Positions 1,018 through 53,452 are shown, counted from the first letter of the stretch. The stretch is 64,000 nucleotides of DNA from an uncultured delta proteobacterium (GCA_963788205.1 CAWBGG010000002.1:449988-513987), one strand, 5' to 3'. Translations and numbers: made by a program. Notes: generated from the sequence alone by a model not told the origin.

Positions 1018-1226
1018 GGGTAGTGTCTCAGCTTGAGAGGGCTCGCGAGTGGGGTGAGCAGAAGAAGATCCGGGATTCCTCGCGCGGCAGCCACGCGCGG
1101 GAATGACAGAAAAAGCTTGTCCCGTTGTCATTCTCGCGCGTCTGTGTTGCCTGGCGCGCGAAGAATCCCGAATCCTTTCTTCCACCTGCCGACACTGTCT
1201 TCAAGGCCATACTGAGACACTACCCG
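1018..1226. mobile_element. MITE-like element, copy 1 (outer TIR GGGTAGTGTCTCAG / CTGAGACACTACCC; internal doublet of inverted hairpin units) in the hscB-hscA spacer
   Basis: Terminal inverted repeats are directly visible. About 95% identical to the copy at 12984-13190. The internal arms are the same unit that flanks the GIY-YIG gene at 14433-14858. Confidence 0.6.
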
Positions 1227-12983: not shown

Positions 12984-13190
12984 GACAGTGTCTCAGTTTG
13001 AGAGCGCTCGAGAGTGGGGGCGAGCAGCGGGAGATCCGGGATTCCTCGCGCGGCAGCCACGCGCGGGAATGACAGAAAAAGCTTGTCCTTGTCATTCTCG
13101 CGCGTCTGCGTTGCCTGGCGCGCGAAGAATCCCGAATCCTTTCTTCCACCTGCCGACACTGCCTCCGAGGCCAAACTGAGACACTACCCG
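12984..13190. mobile_element. MITE-like element, copy 2, flanked by direct TCACTG (possible target-site duplication)
   Basis: Near-identical to 1018-1226; tcactg present on both sides (12978-12983 and 13191-13196). Confidence 0.6.
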
Positions 13191-14432: not shown

Positions 14433-14858
14433 GGCTGTCATTCTCGCGCGTCTGCTTTGCCTGGCGCGCGAAGAATCCCGGATCTCTGCTCCGTTGAGCC
14501 GTTTCCATGGGTGACCGGACCTACTCCGTATACATCATGAGCAGCATGTCCCGTACGCTCTACACCGGCGTCACCAACGACCTCGATCGCCGCGTTTTCG
14601 AGCACAAGGAAGGGCGGCCCGGTTCCTTCACGGCCCGATACCAGGTGAACCGCTTGGTCTATTTCGAGGAGTTCGGAGACATCGGCGAAGCGATCGCGCG
14701 CGAGAAGGAGATCAAGAAGATGACGCGGAGGGGGAAGGTCGAGCTGATCGAGTCGACGAACCCTGAGTGGCGGGACCTGAGCGAGGAGTAGAAAGGCAGC
14801 AGCCAGAGTCCGGGATTCTTCGCGCGCCAGGCAAAGCAGACGCGCGAGAATGACAGCC
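14433..14858. mobile_element. GIY-YIG cassette: a small GIY-YIG nuclease gene flanked by perfect 49-bp inverted hairpin repeats (14433-14485 and 14805-14858)
   Basis: GGCTGTCATTCTCGCGCGTCTGCTTTGCCTGGCGCGCGAAGAATCCCGGA and its exact reverse complement flank the ORF. The same units occur in the MITEs and at 29631-29690. Confidence 0.65.
14507..14791 (+). CDS. GIY-YIG nuclease family protein (UPF0213 / YhbQ-like, 94 aa)
   Basis: YSVYIM...LYTGVTNDLDRRVFEHKEG...LVYFEEF...REKEIKKMTRRGK. Confidence 0.75.
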   Translation: MGDRTYSVYIMSSMSRTLYTGVTNDLDRRVFEHKEGRPGSFTARYQVNRLVYFEEFGDIGEAIAREKEIKKMTRRGKVELIESTNPEWRDLSEE

Positions 14859-25323: not shown

Positions 25324-25992
25324 TCAGGGTGTGGGAGCGATCGCCCGAGGCCGCGAGACCCGATTCAGCGGCATCACGGCGCGCAGGTCGTCGAGCCCCT
25401 CGATCCGCGCGATTACGCCGGCGAAGCGTGCAGGGATCGTGGGATCGGAAGTGTTGCCATAGAGTCGGCCGTCGGCCGACGCGACGATCGCTACCCCGAA
25501 TAATCGCTCGACCTGCGCTACGGTGGCGGTAAGTCCTACCGAGCGTCCGTCTGCGTTATCCGTTACCGCGCTGAAGCCTTCCGACTTGAGCCATTCCACG
25601 ACCGCATCGACGTCGTTCGGGCTCGGACCGAATCTCGCGTGGAACTCGTCGGGCGTAAGCCAGCGATGATATTGCGGTGAATTCGGGTCCTGCTGTTCGG
25701 CGAGCAATTGGTCCAGCGTTGATTGGTTCCGCAGCGCGAGAACAACCTGGAGGCTAAGCTGCTTGTCGGCGGCCGCTGGTCCCCAGCCCGTGACACTGAC
25801 CGTCGGATGATTGCCCTGCAATGCCACGCTCGAGGCGCGGACATCGTGCGCTAACGCCGCGATGAGCAGCGTCGCGAACGTGACCTTGACCAGCGCCGGG
25901 GTTGCGAAGGCGCACGCGCTCGCTCTCTGCGCAATCGCTTCAGCTGCGGTCGCGATCGGCGCGTCGCCTTTCACATCAATGGGCTGCGCCAC
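25324..25992 (-). pseudogene. Truncated paralog of the S53 peptidase: signal peptide plus pro-kumamolisin activation domain only
   Basis: QQDPNSPQYHRWLTPDEFHARFGP and [12 protein letters not shown]...ARFAGVIARIEGLDDL are colinear with residues ~40-170 of the 48685-52821 protein; ends without a catalytic domain. Confidence 0.55.
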
Positions 25993-25997
25993 CGCGC

Positions 25998-28900
25998 CTA
26001 CTTGCCGCTGCCGCTCACCAGAATCCCGACCGAAGGATGCACCGGGTCATCGCTGGTGATCGTGAGCGTGGCGTTTTCCAGCTGGGTCGACAGCGGCGCG
26101 AACGTGACGCTGATCGAGGCCGAGTGTCCCGACCGTAGCGTGAAGGTCGAGCCGCCGCCGGCGGTCACCTGGAACGGTACGCTGAGCGTGCCCACCTGGC
26201 CGTGCAGTACGCCCGGTCCGAGATTGACCACGCTGAAGGTCCTGGTCGAGTGTTTTCCGATCTTGACCTTGCCGAAGTCGACCAGGTGTGGCGTCGCGAT
26301 CTTGCCCGGGTTGGCCGTGCCCTCGACCTGGACCTCGGCCAGCGGGTTCTTCGGATCGCTGCTCGTGAGCTCAATTTCCCCCGCAAACGAGCCCGCCGCA
26401 GTCGGTGCGAGCACCAGCTTTACCCGCTCGGCGTGACCTTTCGCCAGACTGAAGGAACCGCCCCCGCTCACCACGCTGATCGCCACGGGGAGAGAACTTG
26501 CGTTGACGCTGCCGGTCAGAGTGCCCTTGCCAACATTCCTGATCACGAAGGACAGTACCCGCGTGGTATCGGTCCCGACGGTTCCGAAGTTGAGGATTCG
26601 GCTCGATAGCTGGAGTTTGCCGCTGGGTTGCGGCGTCGGCGCAGGAGTTGGGCTCGGCGTAGGAGTCGGCGATGGCGTGGGCGACGGGGTCGGCGTTGGT
26701 GTCGGGGAGGCGGTCGGCACCGCCGATGGTGTCGGAGATGGGGTCGGCACCGGCGATGGTGTCGGAGAAGCGGTCAGCACCGCTGATGGGGTCGGACCTG
26801 GAATCGGCGCCAGCGGCTGGTCGAATTTCAGAAGGCGGTTATTGGGCAGGTCCGCGACAAACAGGTCGCCGGACGGGTCAACTGCGACACCAGTTGGATC
26901 GCAAAGCCCGTCGGCGCTCGGCACGGGATCGCCGCTGACGCCGTCGCTGCAAAGTTTGGCCGTATAGCTGCCGCCCTGTCCGAACACGTCGTCAGCGATC
27001 GTGTTACCCGAGCCAGCGATCGGAGTCGCGGTGAGCGGCGTGTTAAATTCGAGCACGCGATTGTTGCCGGTGTCAGCGATATAGACGTTGCTGGCCAGAT
27101 CGAGCGCGACCGCTCCGGGGCTGCAGAGGCCGGCAGAGCTGGTGGTGCACGTGTTGCCGTCGAGGCTTCCGCCCTGGCCAAACACGATCGCGGCGGTGGT
27201 ATTGGGCGCAGCGGGATTCGCGAGCGGCGCGGTGTATTCCAGCACGCGATTGTTCATTTGGTCGGCAACGTAGAGATTGTTCGCCGAGTCGACCGCGAGC
27301 CCTTGCGGGCCGCACAGGCTATCGGGACCCAACCCGTTCGCGTCGCCCGCGGCTACGCCGTCATTGCACGAATCGAGACTGAAACTGCCGTGCTGGCCGA
27401 ATACCGTGTCGGGCTTGGTATCGCCCGAGCCCGCCACGCTGGTCTTGGCCAGCGGGGTGTTGTATTCCAGCACGCGGTTGTTGATCTGATCGGCGGCATA
27501 CAGATCGCCCGCCAAATCGAGCGCGACACCAGTGGGCGCGCACAGGCCGGCGGAACTGGTCTTGGGCGCTTTAGAGATCGCGGAGCTCGTACAGGTGTTG
27601 GCAGTGAAGCTGCCGCCTTGGCCGAAGACGAGGGTGGCCGCTTGGCCGACGAGCAGGCCGCTGTTGAACGGCGAGCTGAATTCCAGCACGCGGTTGTTGC
27701 CGGTGTCGGCGACATAAAGGTTGCCGGCCGCATCGACCGCGACGCCGCCGCCGACCTTCTGGGCGTTCTTGCCGGTCCCCGAGCACAGACTGTTCAATCC
27801 CGCGCTGCAAAAGCAGAGGCCGGTCTGGGTGGTGGTGCAATACGATGAGTAGGCGTCGGGTTGCCCGATCACGATATCGGCGGACAGCGCATTGGTCACG
27901 GCCGCGGCGCTCTTCCATCCCAGCACGCGATTGTTCAGCACATCGGCGAGATAGAGATGGCCGCTTGAATCGACCGCTGCTCCGGCGAAAAGCGTGCCGT
28001 AAGCGGTCGTCAGCGCGATCGCCTGGGCGCCGCCGAAGTTGACGATATTGTGCGCCAAGTCTATCTGCCCCAGGGCGAGGTCGGCGGTCTGGTCGCCGGA
28101 GCCGGGCACGCCGCTCTTCATCAGCGGCGTGTAGAATTCCAGCGCGCGATTATTGGCCGTGTCCGCGACCAGGAGGTCGCCGCCGGGATCGGCCACAACA
28201 CCGGCAGGGGCACAAAGGCCGGCGGAGTTCGGCGCGGGATCGCCGTTCGCGCCGTCGCTACAAGCAGTCGCGCTGAAGCTGCCTTTCTGGCCGAACACGT
28301 TGTCGGCAATCGAGTCACCGGAGCCCGGCACATTGATGTTATTGGTCAGCGGCGTGTTGTATTCGAGCACGCGATTGTTGGCCGTATCCGCAACGTAGAG
28401 ATTGTCTGCGGCATCCAGCGCGACTCCCTGCGGCCCGCACAGGCCCGCATTCGAGGTGCCGCACACGGTGGCGAATGCGCCCTGCTGGCCGAACACCGCG
28501 TCGGCGTTGGTGTCGCCTGATCCGCTCACTGCGGTTTTGGCGAGCGGGGTGTCGTATTCCAGTACGCGATTGTTGCCGCTGTCGGAGATGTACAGGTTTC
28601 CCATCGAGTCGGCCGCGACGCCCGTGGGAGAGCACAGGCTGTCGGCGCCGACCCCATTGCCGTCACCCAGGTTCGTCCCGTCGTTGCATCCGGTGGTGCT
28701 GAAGCTGCCGTCCTGGCCAAACACCAGGTCGGCGATAGTATCGCCAGAGCCGGGCGCCATGGTCACGGACAGTGGCGTGTTGTATTCGAGCACCCGATTG
28801 TTCCCGCCGTCGGCGACGTAAAGGTTGTTCGCCGGGTCGACCGCGAGTCCGGCGATATTGAGGAACGGCGGAGAAGGCTGCACAAACGTAGTGTTGGGCT

Positions 28901-29408
28901 GTTGCCCGACGGTCAAGCCGCTGCCGAACGGCGCATTGTACTCGAATACCTGCACGCCGGTCGCGACGTAGAGGTTGCCCATCCCGTCGACCGCAACCGA
29001 ATTGGGCGCACAGAGACCGTTGCACGAGCTCGAGGACGCGTCGGCCTGGCCGATTACGATATTTCCGGCCGCGCCGTTAGCCAGCGCAGCGACGCTTTTC
29101 CATCCGATGACGCGATTGTTGGTGGTGTCCGCGACGAAAAGATGGCCCTGAGAGTCGATCGCCACGGCTTGGGGGTTTTGCAGCGCCCCCAAGCCGCCGA
29201 AGTTCAGCATGTTGTGGGAAAAATCGACCTGGCCCAGCACCACGTCAGCGGTGGTATCCCCGACGCTGCCCGGCGTGCCCGCGATCGCGACGATCGTAAT
29301 CAGCGCGATACTCGCGCCTCCGGCCACCAATCCCCCAAGTCGCGCACGACGACCGAATGACGCGGCGTACAGAGACATCATGCGTGCCACCTCCCACCCC
29401 CGTAACAA
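25998..29408 (-). CDS. Large secreted NHL-repeat beta-propeller protein (1136 aa) with a Pro/Thr/Ser linker and two C-terminal Ig-like (ASH / choice-of-anchor-D-like) domains
   Basis: At least 15 repeats of the L(Y/F)VAD..NNRVLE(F/Y) type; signal peptide; PTPSP linker; Ig-like tail similar to the tails of the Kelch and S53 proteins. Confidence 0.8.
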
Positions 29409-29479
29409 CCGTTAGCACGATTATACAGGCTGGGGCACGATTTTTTTCACGCTTGGCAGACGCGAGCAGGCCTGGCCGA

Positions 29480-29590
29480 AAACGAGACGAGCAGGGGGTC
29501 GGGCGTGGATGGTCAGGCCAGGATCGAAAGCGCGAGGGCGTCGAGAACGCGTCCGGCGGGGTCCAGCTTGTGGGCGGAACGACGTAGGCG
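29480..29590. repeat. Direct repeat A: copy of the last ~100 bp of kdkA (att-like), left boundary of an island
   Basis: About 90% identical to 33690-33800; would encode ...KLDPAGR.LDA.ALSILA. Confidence 0.6.
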
Positions 29591-29630
29591 ATCTGAGACC
29601 TGCATTTTGGCGGGAATCCTGAGCGCTGAC

Positions 29631-29690
29631 GTCATTCTCCTGCGTCTGTGTTGTCTGGCGCGCGAGGAATCCCGAGTCTTTTCTGCTCGC
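29631..29690. repeat. Solo hairpin unit of the MITE / GIY-YIG repeat family
   Basis: gtcattctcctgcgtctgtgttgtctggcgcgcgaggaatcccg. Confidence 0.5.
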
Positions 29691-29802
29691 TCGCGGCGAC
29701 GGACGCGTTTTGGGTGGCAGGTAGACCGCTTGTCCGGTCAAACTGTCGCGCCCCTGGCCGCTGGGATTGATCGGTGCGCTTCGATGTAGCTACTGTGGCC
29801 AC

Positions 29803-30096
29803 ATGCGGCCAGCGGCGGTCCGGGTCGGAGTGAGAGAACTCAAGAATTACCTGACATCTTATTTGAAGCTCGCCAAAAACGACCAGGAAGCCATCGTGAC
29901 CGAGCGCGGGAAGCCGATCGCCGTCATCCGGCCGGTGCGAGCGACCTCCGCGCTCAAGAGCCTGGAAGGCCGAATCGCGGCGTTGGCCGCCAGGGGAGAA
30001 ATCAGCGCTCCCGAGCGCGGGCTCGTTCGGCGCGTCAAGCGAGTGAGAATCGCCGGCCGTCCGATCTCCGAAGAGATCATCGCGGACAGGCGATGA
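29803..30096 (+). CDS. Phd/YefM family antitoxin
   Basis: VGVRELKNYLTSYLKLAKNDQEAIVTERGKPIAVIRPV. Confidence 0.7.
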   Translation: MRPAAVRVGVRELKNYLTSYLKLAKNDQEAIVTERGKPIAVIRPVRATSALKSLEGRIAALAARGEISAPERGLVRRVKRVRIAGRPISEEIIADRR

Positions 30097-30379
30097 ACTA
30101 CTTTTTTTGACAGCAGCGCGCTGATCAGGCGGTTTGTGGAAGAGGCCGGATCGAAGCGCGGCATTGATCGAAGCTGAGCCTCCGCCGGCGACGTCCAAGG
30201 TGGCTTATGCCGAGGTCCACGCCGGATTGGCGAGGAAGCTTCGAGAACGCGGCCTTACGCCGGCCGCCCATCGCAGCGCCTCGCGGACCTTCGACGCTCG
30301 CGGCGATGGGTCTTTCGTAACCAAGAAAAGCTGCCCTTCGTTCGGCGGGTGTCGCGCAAGAGCCTGTTTGCAAGCGTGA
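30093..30379 (+). pseudogene. Degraded VapC (PIN) toxin; ATG overlaps the phd stop (ATGA); at least two frame breaks (a T7 run at 30100-30107 and near 30150)
   Basis: MNYFF then stop. With one T removed it reads MNYFFDSSALIRRFVEEAGSKRGID, then continues in a third frame as ALIEAEPPPATSKVAYAEVHAGLARKL. Confidence 0.5.
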
Positions 30380-30638
30380 GCGGGTTGAACAGGTGGATCG
30401 CAAGCCGCACGTAAGTTAACAGGCGTAGTTTTCAGGACATTGCGAACCATCGGCGGCGTAGGGGAGCATCGTCCGAAGCCCGATCCTGCGGCTGTCGCGC
30501 CCGCGCGCCATCCCGCCCGCCCTCAATGAGAAGCAGCGGCGTTTCGCGTTACACGGTCCATCGCCTGATCCGGCGCTTCGGGCTCAAGCGCGAAGGCGGG
30601 GCGCGGTATACTTGACCCAAAGATCGGCCACTACCGGA

Positions 30639-31361
30639 TCAAGAACCGCCGTTAGGTACACCGTGCGAGAGGTCACGGAAGTCATTGTGGAAAATACACA
30701 CGATGGGTTTTGAGCCATAGAACAGCAAAACCCACATTGAGAACGCAGTACCAATCAAGTACGAAGACTCGAAAGTGTTTGGATAGCATAGCCCCGGCTT
30801 GCATGCTGCGAGCATTTTCTGTAACTCCGTATCGACTTTAGAAGGGTGGTCGAGAATCCCCCAACGGAACACCGTGTCGGCAGACAGGATGCGCCCGGTG
30901 TGGTGAAAGCAAAGGGCGCGGACAGTTTTTTTCAGGCCGGGGGAAAAGCGGCTTCGGTCAAATTGAATCGCTCCTGTAACATCCGGCGGTAAGTCTTCTT
31001 CAAGCTCTTCACGCAGAAGTATTCCCTTGGCGACGTGTTCTCGTAGAGGTTTGTTGCGGCGAAACGCGCGCGTGACCGCATCACCCGGAGCCGAACTGTT
31101 GACTGATCCATCGTCGGCCATGCCAGCGAGAATGTTTCGTACATAGTCCTCTGATTCGGAATACTGCGCCTGGCACTCGTAGTGCGCGGGCAAAGTAACC
31201 AGGTTGGATGGCAGGGGCGACTTGAAGAAAGCTTGCGCCACTGCGTGGTCCCGCGAATCAGCGCCGGGTAGCCCGCACAAGTAACAGATTCTGTCGATCT
31301 TCTCGACCCCCATAAAAACCTCACACCACTTTTCCTCTTCGGCGCGCCGAACCGGCAACAC
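30639..31361 (-). CDS. HNH-like endonuclease domain protein (240 aa) in a lower-GC islet
   Basis: CYLCGLPGADSRDHAVAQAFF resembles the CxxCG...DH core of HNH; AT-richer codon usage. Confidence 0.4.
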   Translation of the reverse strand: MLPVRRAEEEKWCEVFMGVEKIDRICYLCGLPGADSRDHAVAQAFFKSPLPSNLVTLPAHYECQAQYSESEDYVRNILAGMADDGSVNSSAPGDAVTRAFRRNKPLREHVAKGILLREELEEDLPPDVTGAIQFDRSRFSPGLKKTVRALCFHHTGRILSADTVFRWGILDHPSKVDTELQKMLAACKPGLCYPNTFESSYLIGTAFSMWVLLFYGSKPIVCIFHNDFRDLSHGVPNGGS

Positions 31362-31503
31362 CGGCGCTCCGCATTTCGAGCAGAACGTATACCGCGCCCC
31401 TGAAAGTATCTGAACCGCACTTCGGGCAAGTCATCGTCGCTGCGCGAGATTCTACGCCGCCGCTTGCCGCAAGTCGATCACGTCGCCGCGCGATTCTCGC
31501 CGG

Positions 31504-31875
31504 TCAATGGGTTGCGTGTCTAGCCAACGCTCGTATGTAGGCACGCGCGCACTCCGAGGACAGCTTTTCGCTTGCTTGGCTCGGATGCAGGACTTCCTTC
31601 TTGTCAGGTCCGGTCATCGCCCCAATGCACATCCAAGAATAAGGTGGTGTTGGCTCTTGCCCAATTAGGCTGTCTAGGGCGAACGCGAACCGAACGCCCG
31701 ACCCGTCGTAGTCAATGATCCGGCTGACGATGGGCGGGCGCGGATTATCGTAGAGGCTTGAATCGTCGTGATCTGGACGACCGCACGCCTTGATGATCTC
31801 GTCGAAATCGTCTGCGCATGCGAGTGTAACGGAAGCAACGAGGAACATGATCACGATACCTACGAGCTTGTTCAT
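31504..31875 (-). CDS. Small lipoprotein (signal peptide, lipobox LAC)
   Basis: MNKLVGIVIMFLVASVTLAC; overlaps the upstream gene by 4 bp (ATGA). Confidence 0.5.
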   Translation of the reverse strand: MNKLVGIVIMFLVASVTLACADDFDEIIKACGRPDHDDSSLYDNPRPPIVSRIIDYDGSGVRFAFALDSLIGQEPTPPYSWMCIGAMTGPDKKEVLHPSQASEKLSSECARAYIRALARHATH

Positions 31876-32882
31876 CGTTTTGGACCCGCCTTCTGAAAGG
31901 TGATCGTCATTCCGCCGAATGCGCCGTGAGGATTGTTGAGGCTGGCTAGGTCGGTGGAGTTACCGTAAACGGAATCAAACTGGAGCGTCAGGCCGCAGAA
32001 TTTAACATTTTTGGTCTGCTTGTCGTTCGCGGTCATAATGTCGTTGGGGTCATATGTTGTAGTCTCGCCAGTGAAGCGCGCCTTCGGTTTCGCGCGGTTC
32101 TCGATGAACCGCGCCAACTCCGCTTTGCCGAGATTCGGGCAGGCGTTGCGTGTCATCGCGGCGATTACCTCTTCGGCTCCGGTCTTGTCGTAATCATCTT
32201 GCGTTGTAGCCATGAATGGATCAGCCGGAAGCGCTGCCGCGACCGATTTCACGGTTCGATTATCGGCCAACCTAATGTCGAGGTGCACACCCGTGGTCAT
32301 TCCGGGGTCGCGCACTCCCGGCAGAAAGCCGGTAATGAAGATCGCGTGCTCGAAGAGCACGTTGCCGTTCACGTCTACTTTGTCTGGAGTGTAGAGGCTA
32401 TCCACATCCACGAGGTAATCGTCGGTGACAGCCAATGTTTGCGCTAGCGTGGCGACGCAAGTATGTGTGTCGCGTCCGACGCAACCTGACCGCATCTGGC
32501 CCGTTTTGATTTGCTGGATTTTGGCGAGAATGTCGTTGATGGCGGAGCGGTTAGTCTCGTACCACTGCCGATATGCGTCGCGTTTTATATCCTGCACTCC
32601 CATTCCAAAACCAGGGTAGTAGCCAGCAGGGGAGCCAGGCACCGGCTGGTCGCCCTCTATGCCTTGCATGTTTTGTCTTCCCTGCATCCCCTGCATCCAT
32701 TCCATTCCCTGCGCGACTTGCGGCCCCGGTGTCGCCACCGGCGGTTGCAAGTTTTCGACCTGCATTTCTTGGCTTCGCGGCACCGATTGCGTTGTCTGCA
32801 TGACTTGCGGCCCCGGCGTCGTCGCAGCGCAGGCCGCGAGAGCAAGCAACGTTGCGGACACAACGATATAGGTGATTTTCAT
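31872..32882 (-). CDS. Lipoprotein (336 aa; lipobox LAAC; Q/M-rich N-terminal repeats)
   Basis: MKITYIVVSATLLALAAC; MQGMQGRQNMQG repeats; no known domain. Confidence 0.5.
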   Translation of the reverse strand: MKITYIVVSATLLALAACAATTPGPQVMQTTQSVPRSQEMQVENLQPPVATPGPQVAQGMEWMQGMQGRQNMQGIEGDQPVPGSPAGYYPGFGMGVQDIKRDAYRQWYETNRSAINDILAKIQQIKTGQMRSGCVGRDTHTCVATLAQTLAVTDDYLVDVDSLYTPDKVDVNGNVLFEHAIFITGFLPGVRDPGMTTGVHLDIRLADNRTVKSVAAALPADPFMATTQDDYDKTGAEEVIAAMTRNACPNLGKAELARFIENRAKPKARFTGETTTYDPNDIMTANDKQTKNVKFCGLTLQFDSVYGNSTDLASLNNPHGAFGGMTITFQKAGPKR

Positions 32883-33382
32883 GCCCGGTTTTCCCCTCGC
32901 CCCGACGAACCTTCAGGATACGCCGCGAAGATACGCCGCGTTGTCCGCGCCGCGCAAGCGCAGCACGCTCAGCGCCGCCACGTCGCCGCAGGCCGCAGAT
33001 CGATCACGTCGCCGCGCGGTTTCTCGCCGGTCAAAATCTCGCGCAACCGAGCATCCCGCTTGACGAGCGCCGCGCGTTGCAAAAACTGTCACCAAACTGT
33101 CACCACTTCCGCCGACCACTATCGGTTTTTAGGGTCTCTATCGGTCTCTTCAAAACGCAGGAAACCCTCATTTGACGGCCTTTTCTGCATTTTAGCGACC
33201 GATGCCGGATCGGCTCAAAAGAATCCTAAGTCCGGCGCGTCTGCCATTCTGCCGATTACCCCGACGCGGCACGACTTTTTCCGCACTTGGCCGAAACGGG
33301 TAGTGGGTCAATTTAAGAATTCCGTTGTTGATCCCTGGCCTGCGGCTCGGAGTTTGTGAGTTGTTGACTCACGGTGGCAGCG

Positions 33383-33525
33383 GGCGACCCTCACCGCGAG
33401 CGCGCTTGACGCGCGCTCGCCGCCTCTCCCTGGTCAGGGAGAGGCAGTTAAGATCGCGTCGCGATTTCTGGTCTGCGCCTCTCCCTGAGCAGGGAGAGGC
33501 CGGCGCTGCGCCGGGTGAGGGTTGC
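33383..33525. repeat. Nested palindrome cluster (REP-like): outer IR CGACCCTCACCG / CGGGTGAGGGT enclosing three or four GC-rich hairpins (GCCTCTCCCTG-N-CAGGGAGAGGC, twice)
   Basis: Palindromes read directly; about 200 bp downstream of the kdkA stop, at the end of the lipid A operon. Confidence 0.5.
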
Positions 33526-33689
33526 CTGCTGCTGCCCAGAGCAATTCGCCAGCTCCGGGCCCTTGGGCTTCGCGCAGGGTAAACTCCCCGGGCGCCTGTC
33601 CCGAGTCTATCGAGGGCAATCTACGCGGAGTGATTCGTCTTCGCCACACGCCCGTCACTTCAAGCTGACCCACTACTCAGATGCGCGGA

Positions 33690-33800
33690 GGTTGGCCCAG
33701 ACGAGGGGAGCAGCTGGCCGGGCGACGATGGTCAGGCCAGAATCGAGAGCGCGCGGGCGTCGAGGAAGCGTCCGGCGGGGTCCAGCTTGCGGGCGGAACG
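33690..33800. repeat. Direct repeat B: authentic 3' end of kdkA, partner of 29480-29590
   Basis: Sequence identity to repeat A. Confidence 0.6.
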
Positions 33801-34490
33801 GCGTAGGCGATCCGAGTTCCGGCGGCAAAGTCCTGGCGCCAGTGGCGGGTCGAACAGTTGTGCCTTGTCTAGGTCTAGGATAATCACGGCGAAGCTTTCG
33901 CCGATCTTGGTGACGAACAGGTTGTGCAGATTCAAGTCGGCGTGAAACAGGCCGCGCGCCTGCATGGTCTGAATCGCTAGACGGGCCTGCTCCAGCACAT
34001 GGCTTCTTACCAGCGGGTCCTGGTCGGTGCGCAACAACTCCCACAGCGTCATGCCAGGAATCGCGCGGGTCAGAAAGAAGCCGCGGTACAGCATCGGCGC
34101 CACCCACTCGACCATCGCGCCCATCGGGTCGGCGACCGGGATGCCCCTCCGCCGCGCCTCGAGCGTTACTTTAAGTTCGCGCAGCGGCCTTGGATTGACG
34201 CCGACATAGAGGCCGGTGAAGACCATTCGCATCAGTCCGCCGCGGCGGGCCGCGCGCGCGACCATCTCGGGCGCGCCCGCTATCGCGAGGCGATAGGCGC
34301 TGGCGCGATTACCCTCGCCGGCGCGCGGCGAGGCGGTCAGGTCGCCGAGCGCGGCCACGATCGCAGGGGCGAGGGCCGCCAGCGATTTGCGCAGATACAG
34401 CACCCGCCTGCCGAACCTGAGTGTCGTCAGGTCGGGATCCGGAGCCGGGGCGGCGCGCGGGATCATCGCGGGCGAAATCGGGCGAGTCAC
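33732..34490 (-). CDS. kdkA: 3-deoxy-D-manno-octulosonic acid (Kdo) kinase-like protein (Kdo/WaaP kinase family)
   Basis: Family-typical FHADLNLHNLFV...ILDLD; location downstream of waaA-lpxK. Confidence 0.7.
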   Translation of the reverse strand: MTRPISPAMIPRAAPAPDPDLTTLRFGRRVLYLRKSLAALAPAIVAALGDLTASPRAGEGNRASAYRLAIAGAPEMVARAARRGGLMRMVFTGLYVGVNPRPLRELKVTLEARRRGIPVADPMGAMVEWVAPMLYRGFFLTRAIPGMTLWELLRTDQDPLVRSHVLEQARLAIQTMQARGLFHADLNLHNLFVTKIGESFAVIILDLDKAQLFDPPLAPGLCRRNSDRLRRSARKLDPAGRFLDARALSILA

Positions 34491-48684: not shown

Positions 48685-51600
48685 GTGCGCTGCGATTCGA
48701 TTACCGCGCGAGCGCTGAGGAGCGCCCGGCTGTGCGCCTCCGCGGCGGCCTTGATCTGTCTGCTGGCGGACGCGGCGAGCGGGCAAACCGTCAGGCTGCG
48801 CGGGAATGCGCCGCACGCAGTCGGCAGCCTGGCTTCGACCCTCGAAGCTCCGGCGGCAAACCGCTCGATTTGCAAGTGATCCTTGCGCCGCGCGATCGCG
48901 CCGGCCTCGCCACGCTGCTGCACGAGCAGCAGGATCCGGGCTCGCCGCGGTATCATAGATGGCTCACGCCGGCGGAGTTCGCCGCCCGCTTCGGGCCCCG
49001 CGAGGCCGACTTCAAGGCGGTCGAGGCCTGGCTGCTAGGGCAGGGGCTCACCATCACTTCCGCCGATTTGCCGCGCCGCTACATCCGCGCCGCCGGCTCG
49101 GTGTTGCAGGCCGAGCGCGCTTTTCAGGTCACGATCGTGGCGTCTGCCGACGGACGATCGTTCGGTAATCTGCAGGAGCCGTTGATTCCCGCCCGCTTCG
49201 ACGGAGTTATCGCGCACGTCGAAGGACTGGACAATCTAAGCGCCAGCATTGCCGCCTTCCAGACGCGTCCGGACCGGGCGCATCTTGAGCCCGTCGCAGG
49301 TGCCGGCCACGCGCCCGTGATGCCGTCGTTCGAGCTGGCCGCGCTGTTCGAGGATGCGGGAGAAATCGCTCGCCCCGCCAAAACGCAGCCCGAGGTTCTC
49401 TTCGGCGGTGTCGCCGCCTTCGGACCGTCTGACCTGTACACGTTTTACGACGAATCGCCGGTGCTGAGCGGCGGAATCACCGGCAAGAACTCGGATTGCA
49501 TCGCGCTGGTCGAGGACTCCAACTACCTGACCAGCTCGGTCGCGCTGTTCGACAGCACGTTCCTTTCCAGCGACGCCGCCCCGAGCATCACCAACCGTTT
49601 TCCGACCGCCGATCCCGGCCAGACCGGCGACGAGGCCGAGGCGCTGCTGGATATCGAATGGGCCCATGCGGTCGCGCCCGCGACGCCGATTCGCGTCTAC
49701 ATCGGCAATCCGTCCGACTACATAGTCGATCCCCTTTCCGACGCGATCGGGCAGGCGGTCGGCGACAATGCCTGCTCGGCAATCAGTATCAGCTTTTCCA
49801 TTTGCGGCGCATCCGACAGCTATTTCACCGGGGTGCTCGATCCGCTCTTCGCGCGGGCCGCTGCGCAGGGACAATCGGTGTTCGTCTCCGCCGGCGACTC
49901 CGGCGCGGCCGGCGTGGTTTTCGATCCGAGCACCTATTCGTGCGCGGTGGGCACGAGCCAGAACGTAAACGAGATGTCGGCCGACCCGTGGGTGACCTCG
50001 GTCGGCGGCACCGAGTTCACTCCCGACTACAATTCATCTCACAACGACGTAGGCTCGGTCGCCGAGCAGGTCTGGGACGAGGCCGGCTACGCGACCGGCG
50101 GCGGCTCCAGCAAGGTTTTCTCCAAGCCCGGCTTTCAGAGCGGCGTTGACCCTTCCGTCACTCAACGCGAGGTCCCCGATGTCGCGATGATGGCGTCGCC
50201 CGACCTGCCGGGCGTCTTCATGGGGATGGACTCCGATGGCGCGGCGGCGATCGGATGCTGTTACGGGGGAACGAGCCTCTCGGCACCGATGTGGGCGGGA
50301 ATTACTGAGCTGATCCAGCAGGCGGCGAGCGAGCGGCAGGGCACGCTCAACGCGCGCATCTACCAACTCGGCGCGGCGGGCAGTCCCGCGCTGCGCGACG
50401 TCACCTCGGGCTCGAACTCTTTCAACGGCGTGACGGGTTTCACGGCCGTAACCGGCTACGATCAGGCCACCGGATGGGGCTCGCCTGATATCGCGCGGTT
50501 GATCGCGGCCCTGCCGACCGTCACGCCGACGCCGTCACCAACTCCGAGCGCGACTCCGACGGCGACCCCCACCAATACGCCGACACCCACGCCGTCACCA
50601 TCGCCCTCGGCAACTCCTCCGCCGACGCCTACGAATACGCCGACGCCGAGTCAGACTCCGAGCCCGACGCCATCGCCAACGCCTTCGCCTTCGCCAACGC
50701 CGACTCCGACCGCGACTGCGGCGCCGACATTTACGCCGGCTCCGACCGCGACGCCGACACCCACACCGACCGCCACGACGGCTCCTACCGCAACCCCGAC
50801 GCCTACGCCGGCGCCGACCGCGACCGCTTCGCCGACTGCGACTGCGCCGGCGACTTTCACGCCGGTTCCTACAGCCACTCCAAGCGCAGCGCCGACCGCC
50901 AGCGCAGCGCCGACCCCGACGCCCACCGCCACGCTCGCAGCGACGCCGACCCCCACGCCGACTGCGATTGCGGCTCCGACCGTGAGTCCGACGCCGACCG
51001 CGACTCCGATCGCGACGGCGTCTTCAACCCCGTCACCCGCGCCAACCCCGTCGCCCACGCCCATACCGAGCAGGACTGCGACCCAAACCCCAATATCGAC
51101 CCCGACCCCGAGCCCAACGCCGACCGCGGCCGTTGCTCCCTCGGCAACCCCAACGCTTTCACCAAGCCCGACCGCCAGTCCGACCCCGATTCCCGCGCCG
51201 ACGCCCAGTCGAATTCCAACGCCGACCCCGAGCCCAACGCCGACCACGGCCGTCGCTCCCACATCGACACCAACGCTTTCGTCAACCCCGACTGCCAGTC
51301 CGACCCCGATTCCCGCGCCGACACCCAGTCGAACTCCGACGCCGACCCCCAGCCCAACGCCGACCGCGGCCGTTGCTCCCACCTCGACCCCAACGCTTTC
51401 ACCAACCCCGACCGCCAGTCCGACCCCGATTCCTGCGTCGACACCCAGCCGAGCTCCAACCCCGACCCCGATTCGCGCCCCGACGCCGAGTCAGACTCCG
51501 AGCCCGACTCCGACACCGACGGCGGCTCCTACGGCGACCGCTATGCCCACAACCGTCGTGACGCCTACGCCGACCGTCACGCCGACTCCAACCGCGACCG

Positions 51601-52821
51601 CAGCTCCTACCGCGACCGCGACGGCCACGCTCGCAGCGACACCCACAGCAGCGCCGACTCAAAGCGCAACGCCGACGCCGACTCCCAGTCCCGTTCCGAC
51701 CGTGACTCCATCGCCAACCGCCAGCCAGGCTCCGACCGCCAGCTTGACGGCGACTGCCACGCCGAGCGCAGCGCCAACCGCGTCATCGACTCCCACTCCG
51801 ACGCTCGCGCCGACGCCGACGCCCACGGCGATACCCACTCAGACCGCGACACCCGCGCCAACTTTCACGCCAGTGGCGACCGCGACACCCGCGCCGACGG
51901 CGACGATCGCGGTCGAGTCCACGCCGACTATCGCGCCGCCGGCCGCGACGGCGACTACGCTCCCGACGGCGACGCCGACGCCGGTGCCGCCGCTGGTCAT
52001 CAGGGTCAATTCGCCTACCGACACCGACTACGGCCTCGATGAGCCCGTGACGGCGAACTACTCATGCTCGGGCGGGAACGGCACGGTGACGGCTTGCGCC
52101 GGTCCGGTTACCAGTGGCGGCGCGATTGATACTTCCGCGGTCGGCGCCAAGAGTTTCACCGTGACCGCCAAGGACAGTCTGGGCGACGTCGCGGTTGAGG
52201 CGGTGGACTACTCGATCCTCCCGATCTCGACGATCAGCCTTTCCTTTGCCCCGCAACTGCTCGGTACCACCAGCGCGGCCCAGGACGTGGCATTGATCAA
52301 CACACAAGCCAGCGCGATGGAGCTGTCGCGTATCAGCGCCGGTGGCGATTTCATCCAAACCAACACATGTCCGCGGGCGTTGGTGGCGGGCGGCCGATGC
52401 GACATCGCGGTCAGGTTCGCGCCGAAAGCCGCCGGAGCCCGATCCGGCGATCTGACGATCGTCGAGGGCGGCAACTCGATGGTCGTCAGCTTAAACGGCG
52501 TCGGCGCCGGGGCGCAGCTTTCGCCGTCGAGCCTGAGCTTCAAGTCGCGGACGGTTGGCGCCGCCAGCGCCGCGAAGATCGTGACGCTGGCCAACAAGCA
52601 GGGCACGCAGCTTGATATCGCCGGGATCGCGGTCAGCGGCGATTTCGTCGAGACCAACAACTGCGGCGCCGCGCTGCGGCCGGATTCGAGCTGTCACATT
52701 TCGGTGAGTTTCGCGCCTGGCCGTGGCCGGAAAAAAGCTTTCCGGCGCGCTGACCGTCAGCGCCGATTCGGCGATCGCGCCCCCGAGCGTCAGCCTCATC
52801 GGCACGGCCACGCAGAACTGA
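48685..52821 (+). CDS. Secreted S53 (sedolisin/kumamolisin-like) peptidase with a ~500-aa Pro/Thr/Ala/Ser linker and C-terminal Ig-like domains; frame breaks near 48850-48858 (A-run) and 52727-52736 (A6 run); true stop at 52819-52821
   Basis: Signal peptide in the 48685 frame; pro-domain [18 protein letters not shown]; catalytic region [12 protein letters not shown]. The corrected C-terminus [33 protein letters not shown] resembles the NHL protein tail. Confidence 0.75.
50500..52000. repeat. Low-complexity PT(S/A)-codon repeat DNA (linker of the S53 protein)
   Basis: Reiterated ccgac(g/c)cc / ccgag(c/t)cc units. It generates spurious ORFs in every frame on both strands (50651-51382, 50869-51516, 51133-51561). 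Confidence 0.8.
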
Positions 52822-52828
52822 GCCGCGC

Positions 52829-53452
52829 TCAGCCCGTGCTGGCTGCCTTTCTCAGGTCGGCGGCGATGTCCTGCGGCTTGGCGATCGACCCGCTGTATTC
52901 CTTGAGCTCGTGGCCGTCCGGTCCGATCAGGAACATATCCGCTACGTGCGCGACCGAGCCGTCGGGCTCGATTTCGCGCCGCAGCTTGAGCAGGTTCATC
53001 ACGTGGTCGATCTCGGACGGCGCGCCGGTAAGAAAGGTCCAGCCCTGGTCCTCGGCTCCCTGCTCCTTGGAATACTTGAGCAGCGCCTGCGGATTATCGT
53101 GCTCGGGATCGATCGTGATCGAGATCATCGCGACCTTGCTGCCGAGATCGGGTCCCAAACGCAGCGCGACGTTGGCGAGCTTGGCCGTCAGCATCAGGCA
53201 CGGGCCGGGGCAGCTGGTGTAGATGAAATCGACCAGCACCGGCAGGCCTTTCAGCGAGTCAAGCGAAAAACTGTTGCCGTGCTGATCGAGCAGGGCGGTC
53301 TTCGGCAAGCAATCGCCCTTGCTCGCGACGTCGTATCCGCCTGATTCCGACACGGGCTGGTCGCTGCCACTGATGCTAGCCGATTTGCATCCGCATGCGA
53401 TCGCGGCGACGATTGCGATCGACCCGGCGATCGTCAGCCATTCACGCCGCAT
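52829..53452 (-). CDS. SCO1/SenC copper chaperone (lipoprotein), paralog 1
   Basis: [11 protein letters not shown]...TIDPEHD...HV; start [22 protein letters not shown]. Confidence 0.75.

Follow-up and report, generated by a model that had tools for sequence, protein, structure and literature searches.

A gene 3' end that occurs twice, once in the functional gene and once as a fragment at the far side of a block of accessory genes, is usually read as an attL/attR pair. A described case is e14 at icd/icdC in Escherichia coli K-12, a discrete 15-kb prophage with its own intE and xisE genes which, like phage 21, enters the 3' end of a protein gene and brings along a surrogate tail. When we measured the e14 repeat, icd and icdC were found to share 165 nt of coding sequence at ~93% identity, and the similarity ran on for ~55–60 nt past the stop codon through the terminator. 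Orphaned 3' fragments that arise by additive displacement are also a described outcome of homology-facilitated illegitimate recombination at type VI secretion system (T6SS) effector-immunity, Rhs and contact-dependent growth inhibition (CDI) loci, whereby new DNA enters by homology to the upstream gene, the old 3' end is displaced and kept, and alternative versions circulate with no dedicated recombinase (PMC5361080). Here, we analyzed a stretch of 64,000 nucleotides from an uncultured delta proteobacterium (GCA_963788205.1, CAWBGG010000002.1:449988-513987), referred to as the window, in which an interval of about 4.2 kb (29480-33800) separates the Kdo kinase gene kdkA from a gene for an NHL-repeat secreted protein and is bracketed by two copies of the kdkA 3' end. 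The initial annotation had proposed that this interval is one old, decaying island, integrated site-specifically between att-like repeats. Comparison with relatives shows that the interval is a true islet of accessory DNA, located where kdkA meets the next chromosomal gene, in a slot that has long been hypervariable. The islet is of an ordinary kind, bounded by repeats and situated at a hot spot of recombination. Instead of being one decaying element, it combines several small pieces, namely a palindromic element, a toxin-antitoxin (TA) pair that has decayed, an HNH-motif gene, two lipoprotein genes and a hairpin remnant. For its origin we tentatively give first place, with slightly less than even confidence, to one additive single crossover that would have stacked two alternative versions of the locus in tandem without a dedicated integrase.

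The locus resembles e14 and phage 21 in that the target gene is intact, that a displaced and diverged piece of its 3' end is found on the far side, and that the repeat extends beyond the stop codon; if the insert were lost, one hybrid copy would remain, as in e14 (PMC13626634). Unlike e14, however, the insert measures 4.2 kb, no recombinase and no phage genes were found in it, and its flanks are also present at this locus in relatives lacking an orphan copy. With regard to the features of an e14-type insertion, direct repeats of a gene 3' end beside an intact gene and unoccupied relatives with a single copy were both found, whereas an internal recombinase and the same repeats elsewhere were not. 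The likeness to the T6SS, Rhs and CDI orphans extends to the mode of entry, the retained 3' end, the circulating versions and the missing recombinase, but kdkA is a housekeeping kinase of the lipopolysaccharide core, the displaced piece carries a putative promoter that would serve the next gene, and there is no toxin-immunity logic. Variable hot spots between core genes likewise have a fixed position, genome-specific cargo, mosaic flanks and small selfish elements (GIY-YIG, TA and others like miniature inverted-repeat transposable elements). What sets this slot apart from them is a conserved promoter with a 350-nt leader in front of the cargo, and a 180-nt bounding repeat that is present in the window genome only.

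A repeat search of 28.5–35 kb yielded a single outstanding repeat family, the pair 29482-29597 and 33701-33816, which gives a gap-free alignment of 116 nt with 87% identity. In this kdkA-tail repeat, the best diagonal window of 60 nt holds 55 matches versus 33–38 in shuffled sequence, so that the duplication of the kdkA 3' end lies far beyond shuffles. The repeated unit is also longer than had been claimed. After in-silico removal of the palindromic element (33292-33679), the right and left copies align on through a spacer and a promoter-like module, and the alignment of both copies stops exactly at the TATAATCG box on the left and the GGTAATCG box on the right. The unit thus really comprises ~180 nt, made up of the last 85 nt of kdkA, a spacer of 50–55 nt and the module, in which GCCAAG is followed by GAAAAA..TCGTGCC and then by TATAATCG. 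The left unit is continuous and the right one is split (33253-33291 plus 33680-33816). The copies are 91.4% identical over 81 nt of coding sequence, and this value falls to 72.5% for the spacer and 72% for the promoter module; no identical run exceeds 21 nt (29549-29569 and 33768-33788). The left copy still reads in frame and gives 27 aa with 89% identity to the KdkA C-terminus. It had been described as adjoining the end of the NHL gene but abuts the 5' end and the promoter of that gene instead, since its module (module B) reads into a leader (leader B), a ribosome-binding site (RBS; GGGAGG) and the NHL start, probably an ATG at 29381. The displaced left copy probably carries the NHL promoter, a function suggested by the TATAAT box and its conservation; a sigma-70 scan gave no match at this putative promoter. 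At the side of the islet, similarity between the copies, and to the kdkA genes of relatives, begins at GATCGCC, and the DNA upstream of it belongs to a hairpin element. This joint (29597/29598) is abrupt, lies 34 nt from the hairpin-element remnant and shows similarity only at the level of CTC(A/G)GATCGCC.

The comparison drew on ten kdkA loci, of which the four taken from the genome collection all belong to delta-proteobacterial metagenome-assembled genomes; these and other sequences used below are designated by L numbers. By identity across the upstream genes in common, the window has its nearest relative in L007 (93%); L001, L008, L009 and L010 form a tight group with 92–95% mutual identity and ~84% identity to the window, and L002 is 88% identical to this group. 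Downstream of kdkA, every lineage differs. The initial annotation had named relatives with the same gene content and no empty site as grounds for abandoning the insertion. In L001 and L009, however, kdkA is followed by the spacer, the promoter module and NHL, collinear with the window from 29592 downwards, which constitutes a clean empty site relative to which the interval is an insertion; its content is accessory, as had been assumed. L003 and L012 contain neither the NHL gene nor pro-kumamolisin-domain genes. L010, L008 and L002 share another arrangement (version A), in which kdkA is followed by promoter module A and a leader of ~350 nt, preceded in L010 and L008 by a small inverted-repeat element. 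In L010, the leader is followed by a different cargo, encoding proteins of 246 aa and 290 aa without known domains, and then by a homologue of window positions 30537-30623, an intact GIY-YIG gene with hairpins at the position equivalent to the solo hairpin of the window, a promoter remnant (GGTATAATCG plus ~16 nt) and a pro-kumamolisin-domain gene. This short promoter repeat, shared between module A and the remnant (B'), flanks the accessory region in both L010 and L002. Homologues of the right flank of the islet, of 30537-30623 and of the GIY-YIG/hairpin end are located downstream of kdkA in L010, L008 and L002, together with different cargo.

None of the proteins encoded in the window's islet occurs in any of the relatives' kdkA loci. 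An orphan kdkA tail was not found by word-7 BLAST across the sequenced interval of L010 and L002, nor in L008, where the contig ends inside the region. A sequence upstream of promoter B' in L010 and L002 was considered as a candidate and rejected, since it does not belong to the GIY-YIG element and shows no recognisable likeness to a decayed orphan copy beyond ~17 nt. Occupancy is split even within the group of 92–95% identical relatives, where L001 and L009 are empty and L008 and L010 carry version A. The kdkA genes of L010 and L008 are 91.6% identical; for promoter A plus leader A the identity is 63% between L010 and L008 and 78% between the window and L010. The 30-nt tail that follows kdkA in L007 matches nothing. 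Each kdkA tail of the window precedes DNA that follows the single kdkA in some relative, whereby the functional tail goes with version A and the orphan tail with the arrangement of L001 and L009 (version B). Judged from these alignments, the locus is a mosaic across lineages.

Sliding identity along the window's kdkA stays closest to L007 up to the repeat. This rules out a long foreign tract inside the gene and would place any exchange point within the repeat itself. The two copies share bases that are seen in no relative (the A in CCTACG and the A in GGACGC), and over 81 nt they differ from each other at 7 positions, whereas either copy differs from L007 at 10 (87.7% identity). The shared unique bases and the closeness of the copies imply that the second copy stems either from within the window's own lineage or from a close relative, or else that gene conversion has homogenised the copies. 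At five of the six informative sites, the bases agree with copies that are reciprocal hybrids, with the exchange around the identical run of 21 nt. A single crossover would leave such a pattern, although it is not significant here (about P 0.11).

Because both halves of the window's arrangement have positional homologues in relatives and because the locus is mosaic, we favor the reading in which two versions of one locus are stacked. In version A, as seen in L010, L008 and L002, kdkA is followed by a small inverted-repeat element, then by promoter A with leader A, an exchangeable cargo and finally a GIY-YIG/hairpin element. In version B, as seen in L001 and L009, the spacer, promoter B and NHL come after kdkA; in the window, this version starts 85 nt before the kdkA stop. 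The crossover might have been of the Campbell type or a homology-facilitated illegitimate recombination, with incoming DNA from the window's own lineage or a close relative, and the joining would have used the shared unit on one side and the illegitimate joint 29597/29598 on the other. The right copy completes kdkA, and its promoter module would read into leader A and the cargo. The features of such a displacement are present, as homology lies within the 180-nt unit, the joint is abrupt and the orphan tail has been retained. That the incoming DNA was an alternative version of the same locus is consistent with the positional homologues of both halves and with the lineage-specific bases common to the copies. 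The repeat, the empty sites, the positional homologues of both halves, the mosaicism and the lack of recombinase matches are observations, whereas the single-crossover origin, the direction of the crossover, the promoter activity and the enzyme are inferred.

Several points weigh against the stacking of two versions. e14 has the same architecture, down to a repeat that passes the end of the gene. Old islands commonly lose their integrase, and at 87% identity with a longest identical run of 21 nt, RecA-driven exchange between the present copies would be inefficient in view of the minimal homology that it needs. The hybrid-site pattern fails to reach significance, as noted above. The comparison comprises ten relatives only, and the closest of them, L007, ends 34 nt after the kdkA stop, so that its locus is not visible. 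Two independent short-read contigs of the same strain from other runs, L013 and the Logan contig L017, match the window at 99.93% or more over 30579-33013 and 30220-33252, respectively, but neither spans a repeat junction. Finally, homology-facilitated illegitimate recombination is rare (PMC5361080).

It could also be that an integrative element with a surrogate kdkA 3' end as attP integrated site-specifically, so that the repeats would represent attL and attR. The integrase would later have been lost and the cargo turned over, the orphan copy of L010 and L002 would have been deleted secondarily next to GIY-YIG insertions, and L001 and L009 would be unoccupied or excised. This account is the main rival, with a strong precedent in e14, and we consider it possible but somewhat less likely. 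The anatomy speaks for it, since the e14 repeat with its 165 nt of coding sequence and ~55–60 nt past the stop at 93% or lower corresponds here to 85 nt and ~95 nt at 91% and 72%, respectively. As the measured e14 repeat passes the stop codon as well, the same extension at kdkA is not evidence against integration, and this argument was withdrawn. The clean empty sites of L001 and L009, the polymorphic occupancy among relatives of 92–95% identity and a site pattern compatible with reciprocal hybrids fit equally, as does a cargo of the mobile-DNA type (the TA pair, lower GC content and an HNH-motif gene whose relatives lie near methylase, polB and HTH_17 genes). Moreover, the GIY-YIG element adjoins the expected orphan position in L010 and L002. 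Yet neither an integrase nor an excisionase was detected: no recombinase was found among the open reading frames (ORFs) of the islet in profile searches with Pfam, NCBIfam, PHROGs and PADLOC, in line with the integrase-free state noticed before, nor among 20 other ORFs of the window, nor in the checked cargo downstream of kdkA in L010, L002 and L004, whereby the screens of the wider window and of the relatives' cargo were partial, which in turn weakens the case for an integrase-free origin. The IMG/VR contigs scanned contain no attP-like mimic of the kdkA 3' end, no leader A and no relatives of the 336-aa lipoprotein encoded in the islet. The occupied L010 and the empty L001 share the kdkA tail and the first 22 nt of the spacer and give no sign of a surrogate tail, and since the two copies in the window have lineage-specific bases in common, a surrogate would have to stem from the same lineage. 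The same element with the same att repeats was not seen in L010 and L002, a small sampling, in which the flanks are common and the orphan tail is absent. Of the site-specific integration proposed initially, the e14-like anatomy and the empty sites therefore stand, whereas nothing identifies the repeats as att sites, a recombinase is missing and the flanks recur without the orphan tail.

An in-situ tandem duplication of the kdkA tail, spacer and promoter by slippage or unequal crossing-over, with the gap filled stepwise by leader A and cargo, the TA pair, the GIY-YIG element and the palindromic element, would explain why each copy is closest to the other in the coding part and why both have unique bases in common. 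It would also agree with the visibly composite nature of the interval, built of independent small elements, and with the short A/B' promoter repeat around the accessory region of L010 and L002. However, many independent insertions into one short interval would be needed, leader A and flanks common to genomes without the kdkA-tail duplication would be left unexplained, and the drop from 91% identity in the coding part to ~72% in spacer and promoter is more readily reconciled with two diverged alleles than with decay in situ. This makes such a duplication unlikely. Very improbable is an assembly chimera, in which two strains that occurred together and differed in their version (A or B) would have been joined artificially, creating the orphan copy. 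The retrieved relatives of the window are metagenome-derived, as the window itself probably is, L013 and L017 cover the interior only and stop short of both repeat copies, and L017 ends at the promoter box, which hints at strain variation. An assembler jump, on the other hand, would lack shared sequence at the joint 29597/29598, the copies differ by 9–28%, above the expectation for strains of one species, window-specific bases occur in both, and the source contig has 1.34 Mb in the database. As a separate observation, L017 stops one base after the GGTAATCG box that closes the repeat unit (33252), and its third base differs from the window; the endpoint suggests strain-level branching in the sampled population. 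Finally, the slot might be an integrase-free platform for cargo exchange, with a fixed promoter and leader A as an expression and landing pad, cargo swapped between leader A and the conserved 87-nt segment, and breaks supplied by the flanking GIY-YIG/hairpin elements driving the exchange; the kdkA-tail/promoter duplication would then be a by-product or a recombination handle. Such a platform would make the locus more interesting if true, but we regard it as decidedly unlikely.

If two versions were indeed stacked, a duplicated gene 3' end around accessory genes, usually taken for attL/attR, can be the scar of such stacking, and for annotation the pattern of repeat plus cargo alone gives no ground for scoring an island as integrase-made. 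Locally, the orphan copy would carry the putative promoter that serves the NHL gene, and the functional kdkA tail may be a hybrid. None of these implications is very surprising to a specialist. The least ordinary feature lies outside the original claim, namely a conserved leader that precedes variable cargo in four lineages. The features of the interval and its flanks are compiled in the table.

Table. Positions of features in and around the kdkA-NHL interval, counted from the first letter of the window
Feature	Position	Strand	Remarks
NHL-repeat secreted protein gene	25998..29381	-	PF01436; chromosomal context, outside the islet; directly after kdkA in L001 and L009
Left (orphan) copy of the repeated unit	29418..29597	-	Collinear with the single kdkA-NHL junction of L001 and L009
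Promoter-like module B	GCCAAG 29450-29457; GAAAAAAATCGTGCC 29434-29448; TATAATCG 29418-29425	-	
Left-copy spacer	29458-29512	-	
Dead kdkA tail in the left copy	Coding 29516-29597; stop 29513-29515	-	
Non-homologous joint, left end of the islet / position -85 of the orphan kdkA tail	29597..29598		
Solo hairpin unit	29631..29687		Dispersed repeat family flanking 94-aa GIY-YIG genes
phd/yefM-type antitoxin gene	29767..30096	+	Probable start ATG 29803; PF02604, E 1.5e-7; TIGR01552
vapC (PIN) remnant	30093..30410	+	N-terminal half only; at least 3 frame changes, one at the T7 run 30102-30108
Conserved non-coding segment (87 nt), left edge of the cargo slot	30537..30623		81% identical to L010 4162-4251
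HNH-motif protein gene	30639..31361	-	240-aa ORF; database start gives 224 aa from 31313
55-nt direct repeat, copy 1	31454..31507	-	~95 nt upstream of the longest HNH-like ORF start (31361)
Small lipoprotein gene, 123 aa	31504..31875	-	Signal peptide, TLAC lipobox
Lipoprotein gene, 336 aa	31872..32882	-	LAAC lipobox; ATGA overlap with the 123-aa gene
Leader A, non-coding, between promoter module A and cargo	32883..33252	-	Holds 55-nt copy 2 (32980-33034)
Promoter-like module A (distal right copy)	GGTAATCG 33253-33260; GGAAAAAGTCGTGCC 33268-33282; GCCAAG 33284-33291	-	
Palindromic element, 388 nt, inserted in the right repeat copy	33292..33679		Nested hairpins 33368-33541
Proximal right copy	33680..33816	-	Spacer 33680-33731 and functional last 85 nt of kdkA 33732-33816
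kdkA (Kdo kinase)	33732..34490	-	Pfam Kdo PF06293; NF002475

The pieces that the initial annotation had listed, which are a solo hairpin unit, phd with a frameshifted vapC, an HNH-like ORF, an overlapping pair of lipoprotein genes, a lower-GC segment and a nested palindrome cluster, were all recovered, with some refinements. The palindrome cluster is part of the palindromic element, which has perfect inverted termini of 11 nt (33300-33310 and 33666-33676) and folds as DNA with a z of -8.4 versus shuffles. The element is missing from the left copy and from L002, and elements at the same site in L010 and L008 have the same termini with a different interior. No other copy was found in the window, nor was there a clear target-site duplication. 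The Rfam model whalefall-1 resembled the hairpins GCCTCTCCCTG..CAGGGAGAGGC (33387-33501) below threshold and on both strands, reaching 25.9 and 19.3 bits where the gathering score is 37, which is most likely a chance likeness of GC-rich hairpins.

The solo hairpin unit near the left joint is probably the remnant of a GIY-YIG element, to judge from the dispersed family to which it belongs. Six other copies of this family are present in the window (at 1056-1180, 13037-13144, 14437-14491 and 14811-14854), and a 94-aa GIY-YIG gene (14507-14785) lies between two inverted hairpin units (14437-14854). The protein encoded there is 90% identical to the copy of L002, which in turn is 86% identical to the copy of L010. 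Two further hairpin pairs in the window (1056-1180 and 13037-13144) enclose no gene. Taken together, GIY-YIG gene and hairpins look like a family of small selfish elements that would be spreading in these genomes.

Next to this unit, the antitoxin gene is followed by what is left of vapC. A first reconstruction of the toxin reached the PIN profile with an E of 0.035, and the corrected one with 23.7 bits versus a cutoff of 23.6 (E 8.1e-5), covering profile positions 1–59 of 120 only. An intact PIN-domain toxin was not found downstream of phd, as half the profile was covered even after at least three frame corrections, and searches of the remnant against plasmids and PDB gave nothing useful. The remnant is cut off where the lower-GC segment begins, which has 52–61% GC over 30.5–33.3 kb versus 63–72% in the flanks; no tRNA was detected in the window. 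At the left edge of this segment, the conserved 87 nt and their L010 homologue occupy the same relative position beside different cargo.

The HNH-like ORF of 240 aa had no match in Pfam or NCBIfam. PHROG 7785 (HNH endonuclease) matches residues 7–50 with an E of 3.8e-4, and in 14 aligned family members the motif C-x2-C / D-x3-H / H-x2-C (C10, C13, D19, H23, H44 and C47) is invariant. An AlphaFold (AF2) model reached a predicted local distance difference test score (pLDDT) of 80.5, and Foldseek found no significant neighbor for it in PDB. The family is rare, with 17 database relatives whose neighbors are methylase, polB-like, HTH_17 and NB-ARC genes, and in the IMG/VR scan it matched viral proteins only over the motif-bearing N-terminal 25–90 residues. 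In L013 (1653-2374, corresponding to 30639-31361 of the window), a single-base indel splits the gene into ORFs of 142 aa and 58 aa, whereas in L017, which comes from another run, it is intact with 240 aa. The indel of L013 may be a read error, or else a sign that some members of the population have an HNH-motif gene in decay.

The two lipobox sequences of the lipoprotein pair, MKITYIVVSATLLALAAC and MNKLVGIVIMFLVASVTLAC, were read from the translations, and the exact 123-aa lipoprotein was found again in two independent read sets. Other loci, too, have a large lipoprotein gene with a small one right behind it. In one of them, L014, a relative with 55% identity to the 336-aa lipoprotein is followed by such a small gene in a core chromosomal context. 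The pair is bracketed by the two copies of a 55-nt repeat (family D4/D19; 86–87% identical). Promoter-like matches overlap copy 1. Each copy lies ~95–100 nt upstream of an ORF start, one in front of the HNH-like gene and the other in front of the 336-aa lipoprotein gene, and a third homologue was seen in L002 (12244-12332), adjoining a collagen-repeat gene. The repeat may be a portable promoter or regulatory segment.

Leader A is conserved over ~350 nt, with 84% identity to L010 and 67% to L008, while L002 has two pieces of it, and, behind a fixed putative promoter, it precedes different cargo in four lineages. The conserved stretches correspond to window positions 33010-33252 (minus strand), L010 2130-2375 and L008 7415-7650. 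The leader contains a tandem motif, TGGTGACAG-TT-TGGTGACAG in the window and L010, with TGATCACA occurring twice in L008, and the motif changes in concert between lineages (TGGTGACAG-TT-TGGTGACAG versus TGATCACAA-CT-TGATCACAC). A small ORF was ruled out, as there are stops in all frames and no codon periodicity (phase mismatches 22/19/22). No Rfam entry matched the leader, and support for a structured RNA from three sequences was weak; a long-range helix between TCGGTCGCTA and ATAGTGGTCGG is possible. Leader A could be an operator or a structured 5' leader.

On the left side of the slot, the -10 box, leader B, the RBS and the first codons in front of NHL are common to the window (25998-29425), L001 and L009. 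The same sequence precedes a pro-kumamolisin-domain gene in L010 (4875-4960) and L002 (12790-12860), both of which have no NHL gene. With this 5' region shared before either gene, the 3.4-kb NHL gene appears itself as a presence/absence polymorphism at a start codon. In the window, the protein with the pro-kumamolisin activation domain (25324-25992) has a paralogue with 52% aa identity at 48831-49250, at the start of a 1496-aa ORF (48732-53222). On the right side, kdkA closes the lpxB ... waaA-lpxK-trm112-kdkA cluster, as shown by LpxB, LpxK and Trm112 domain matches. In the two most distant relatives, L003 (8778-10073) and L012 (4207-5656), ~1.3–1.4 kb of extra DNA that is absent in the window lies between trm112 and kdkA, and this gap represents a second variable spot of the gene cluster.

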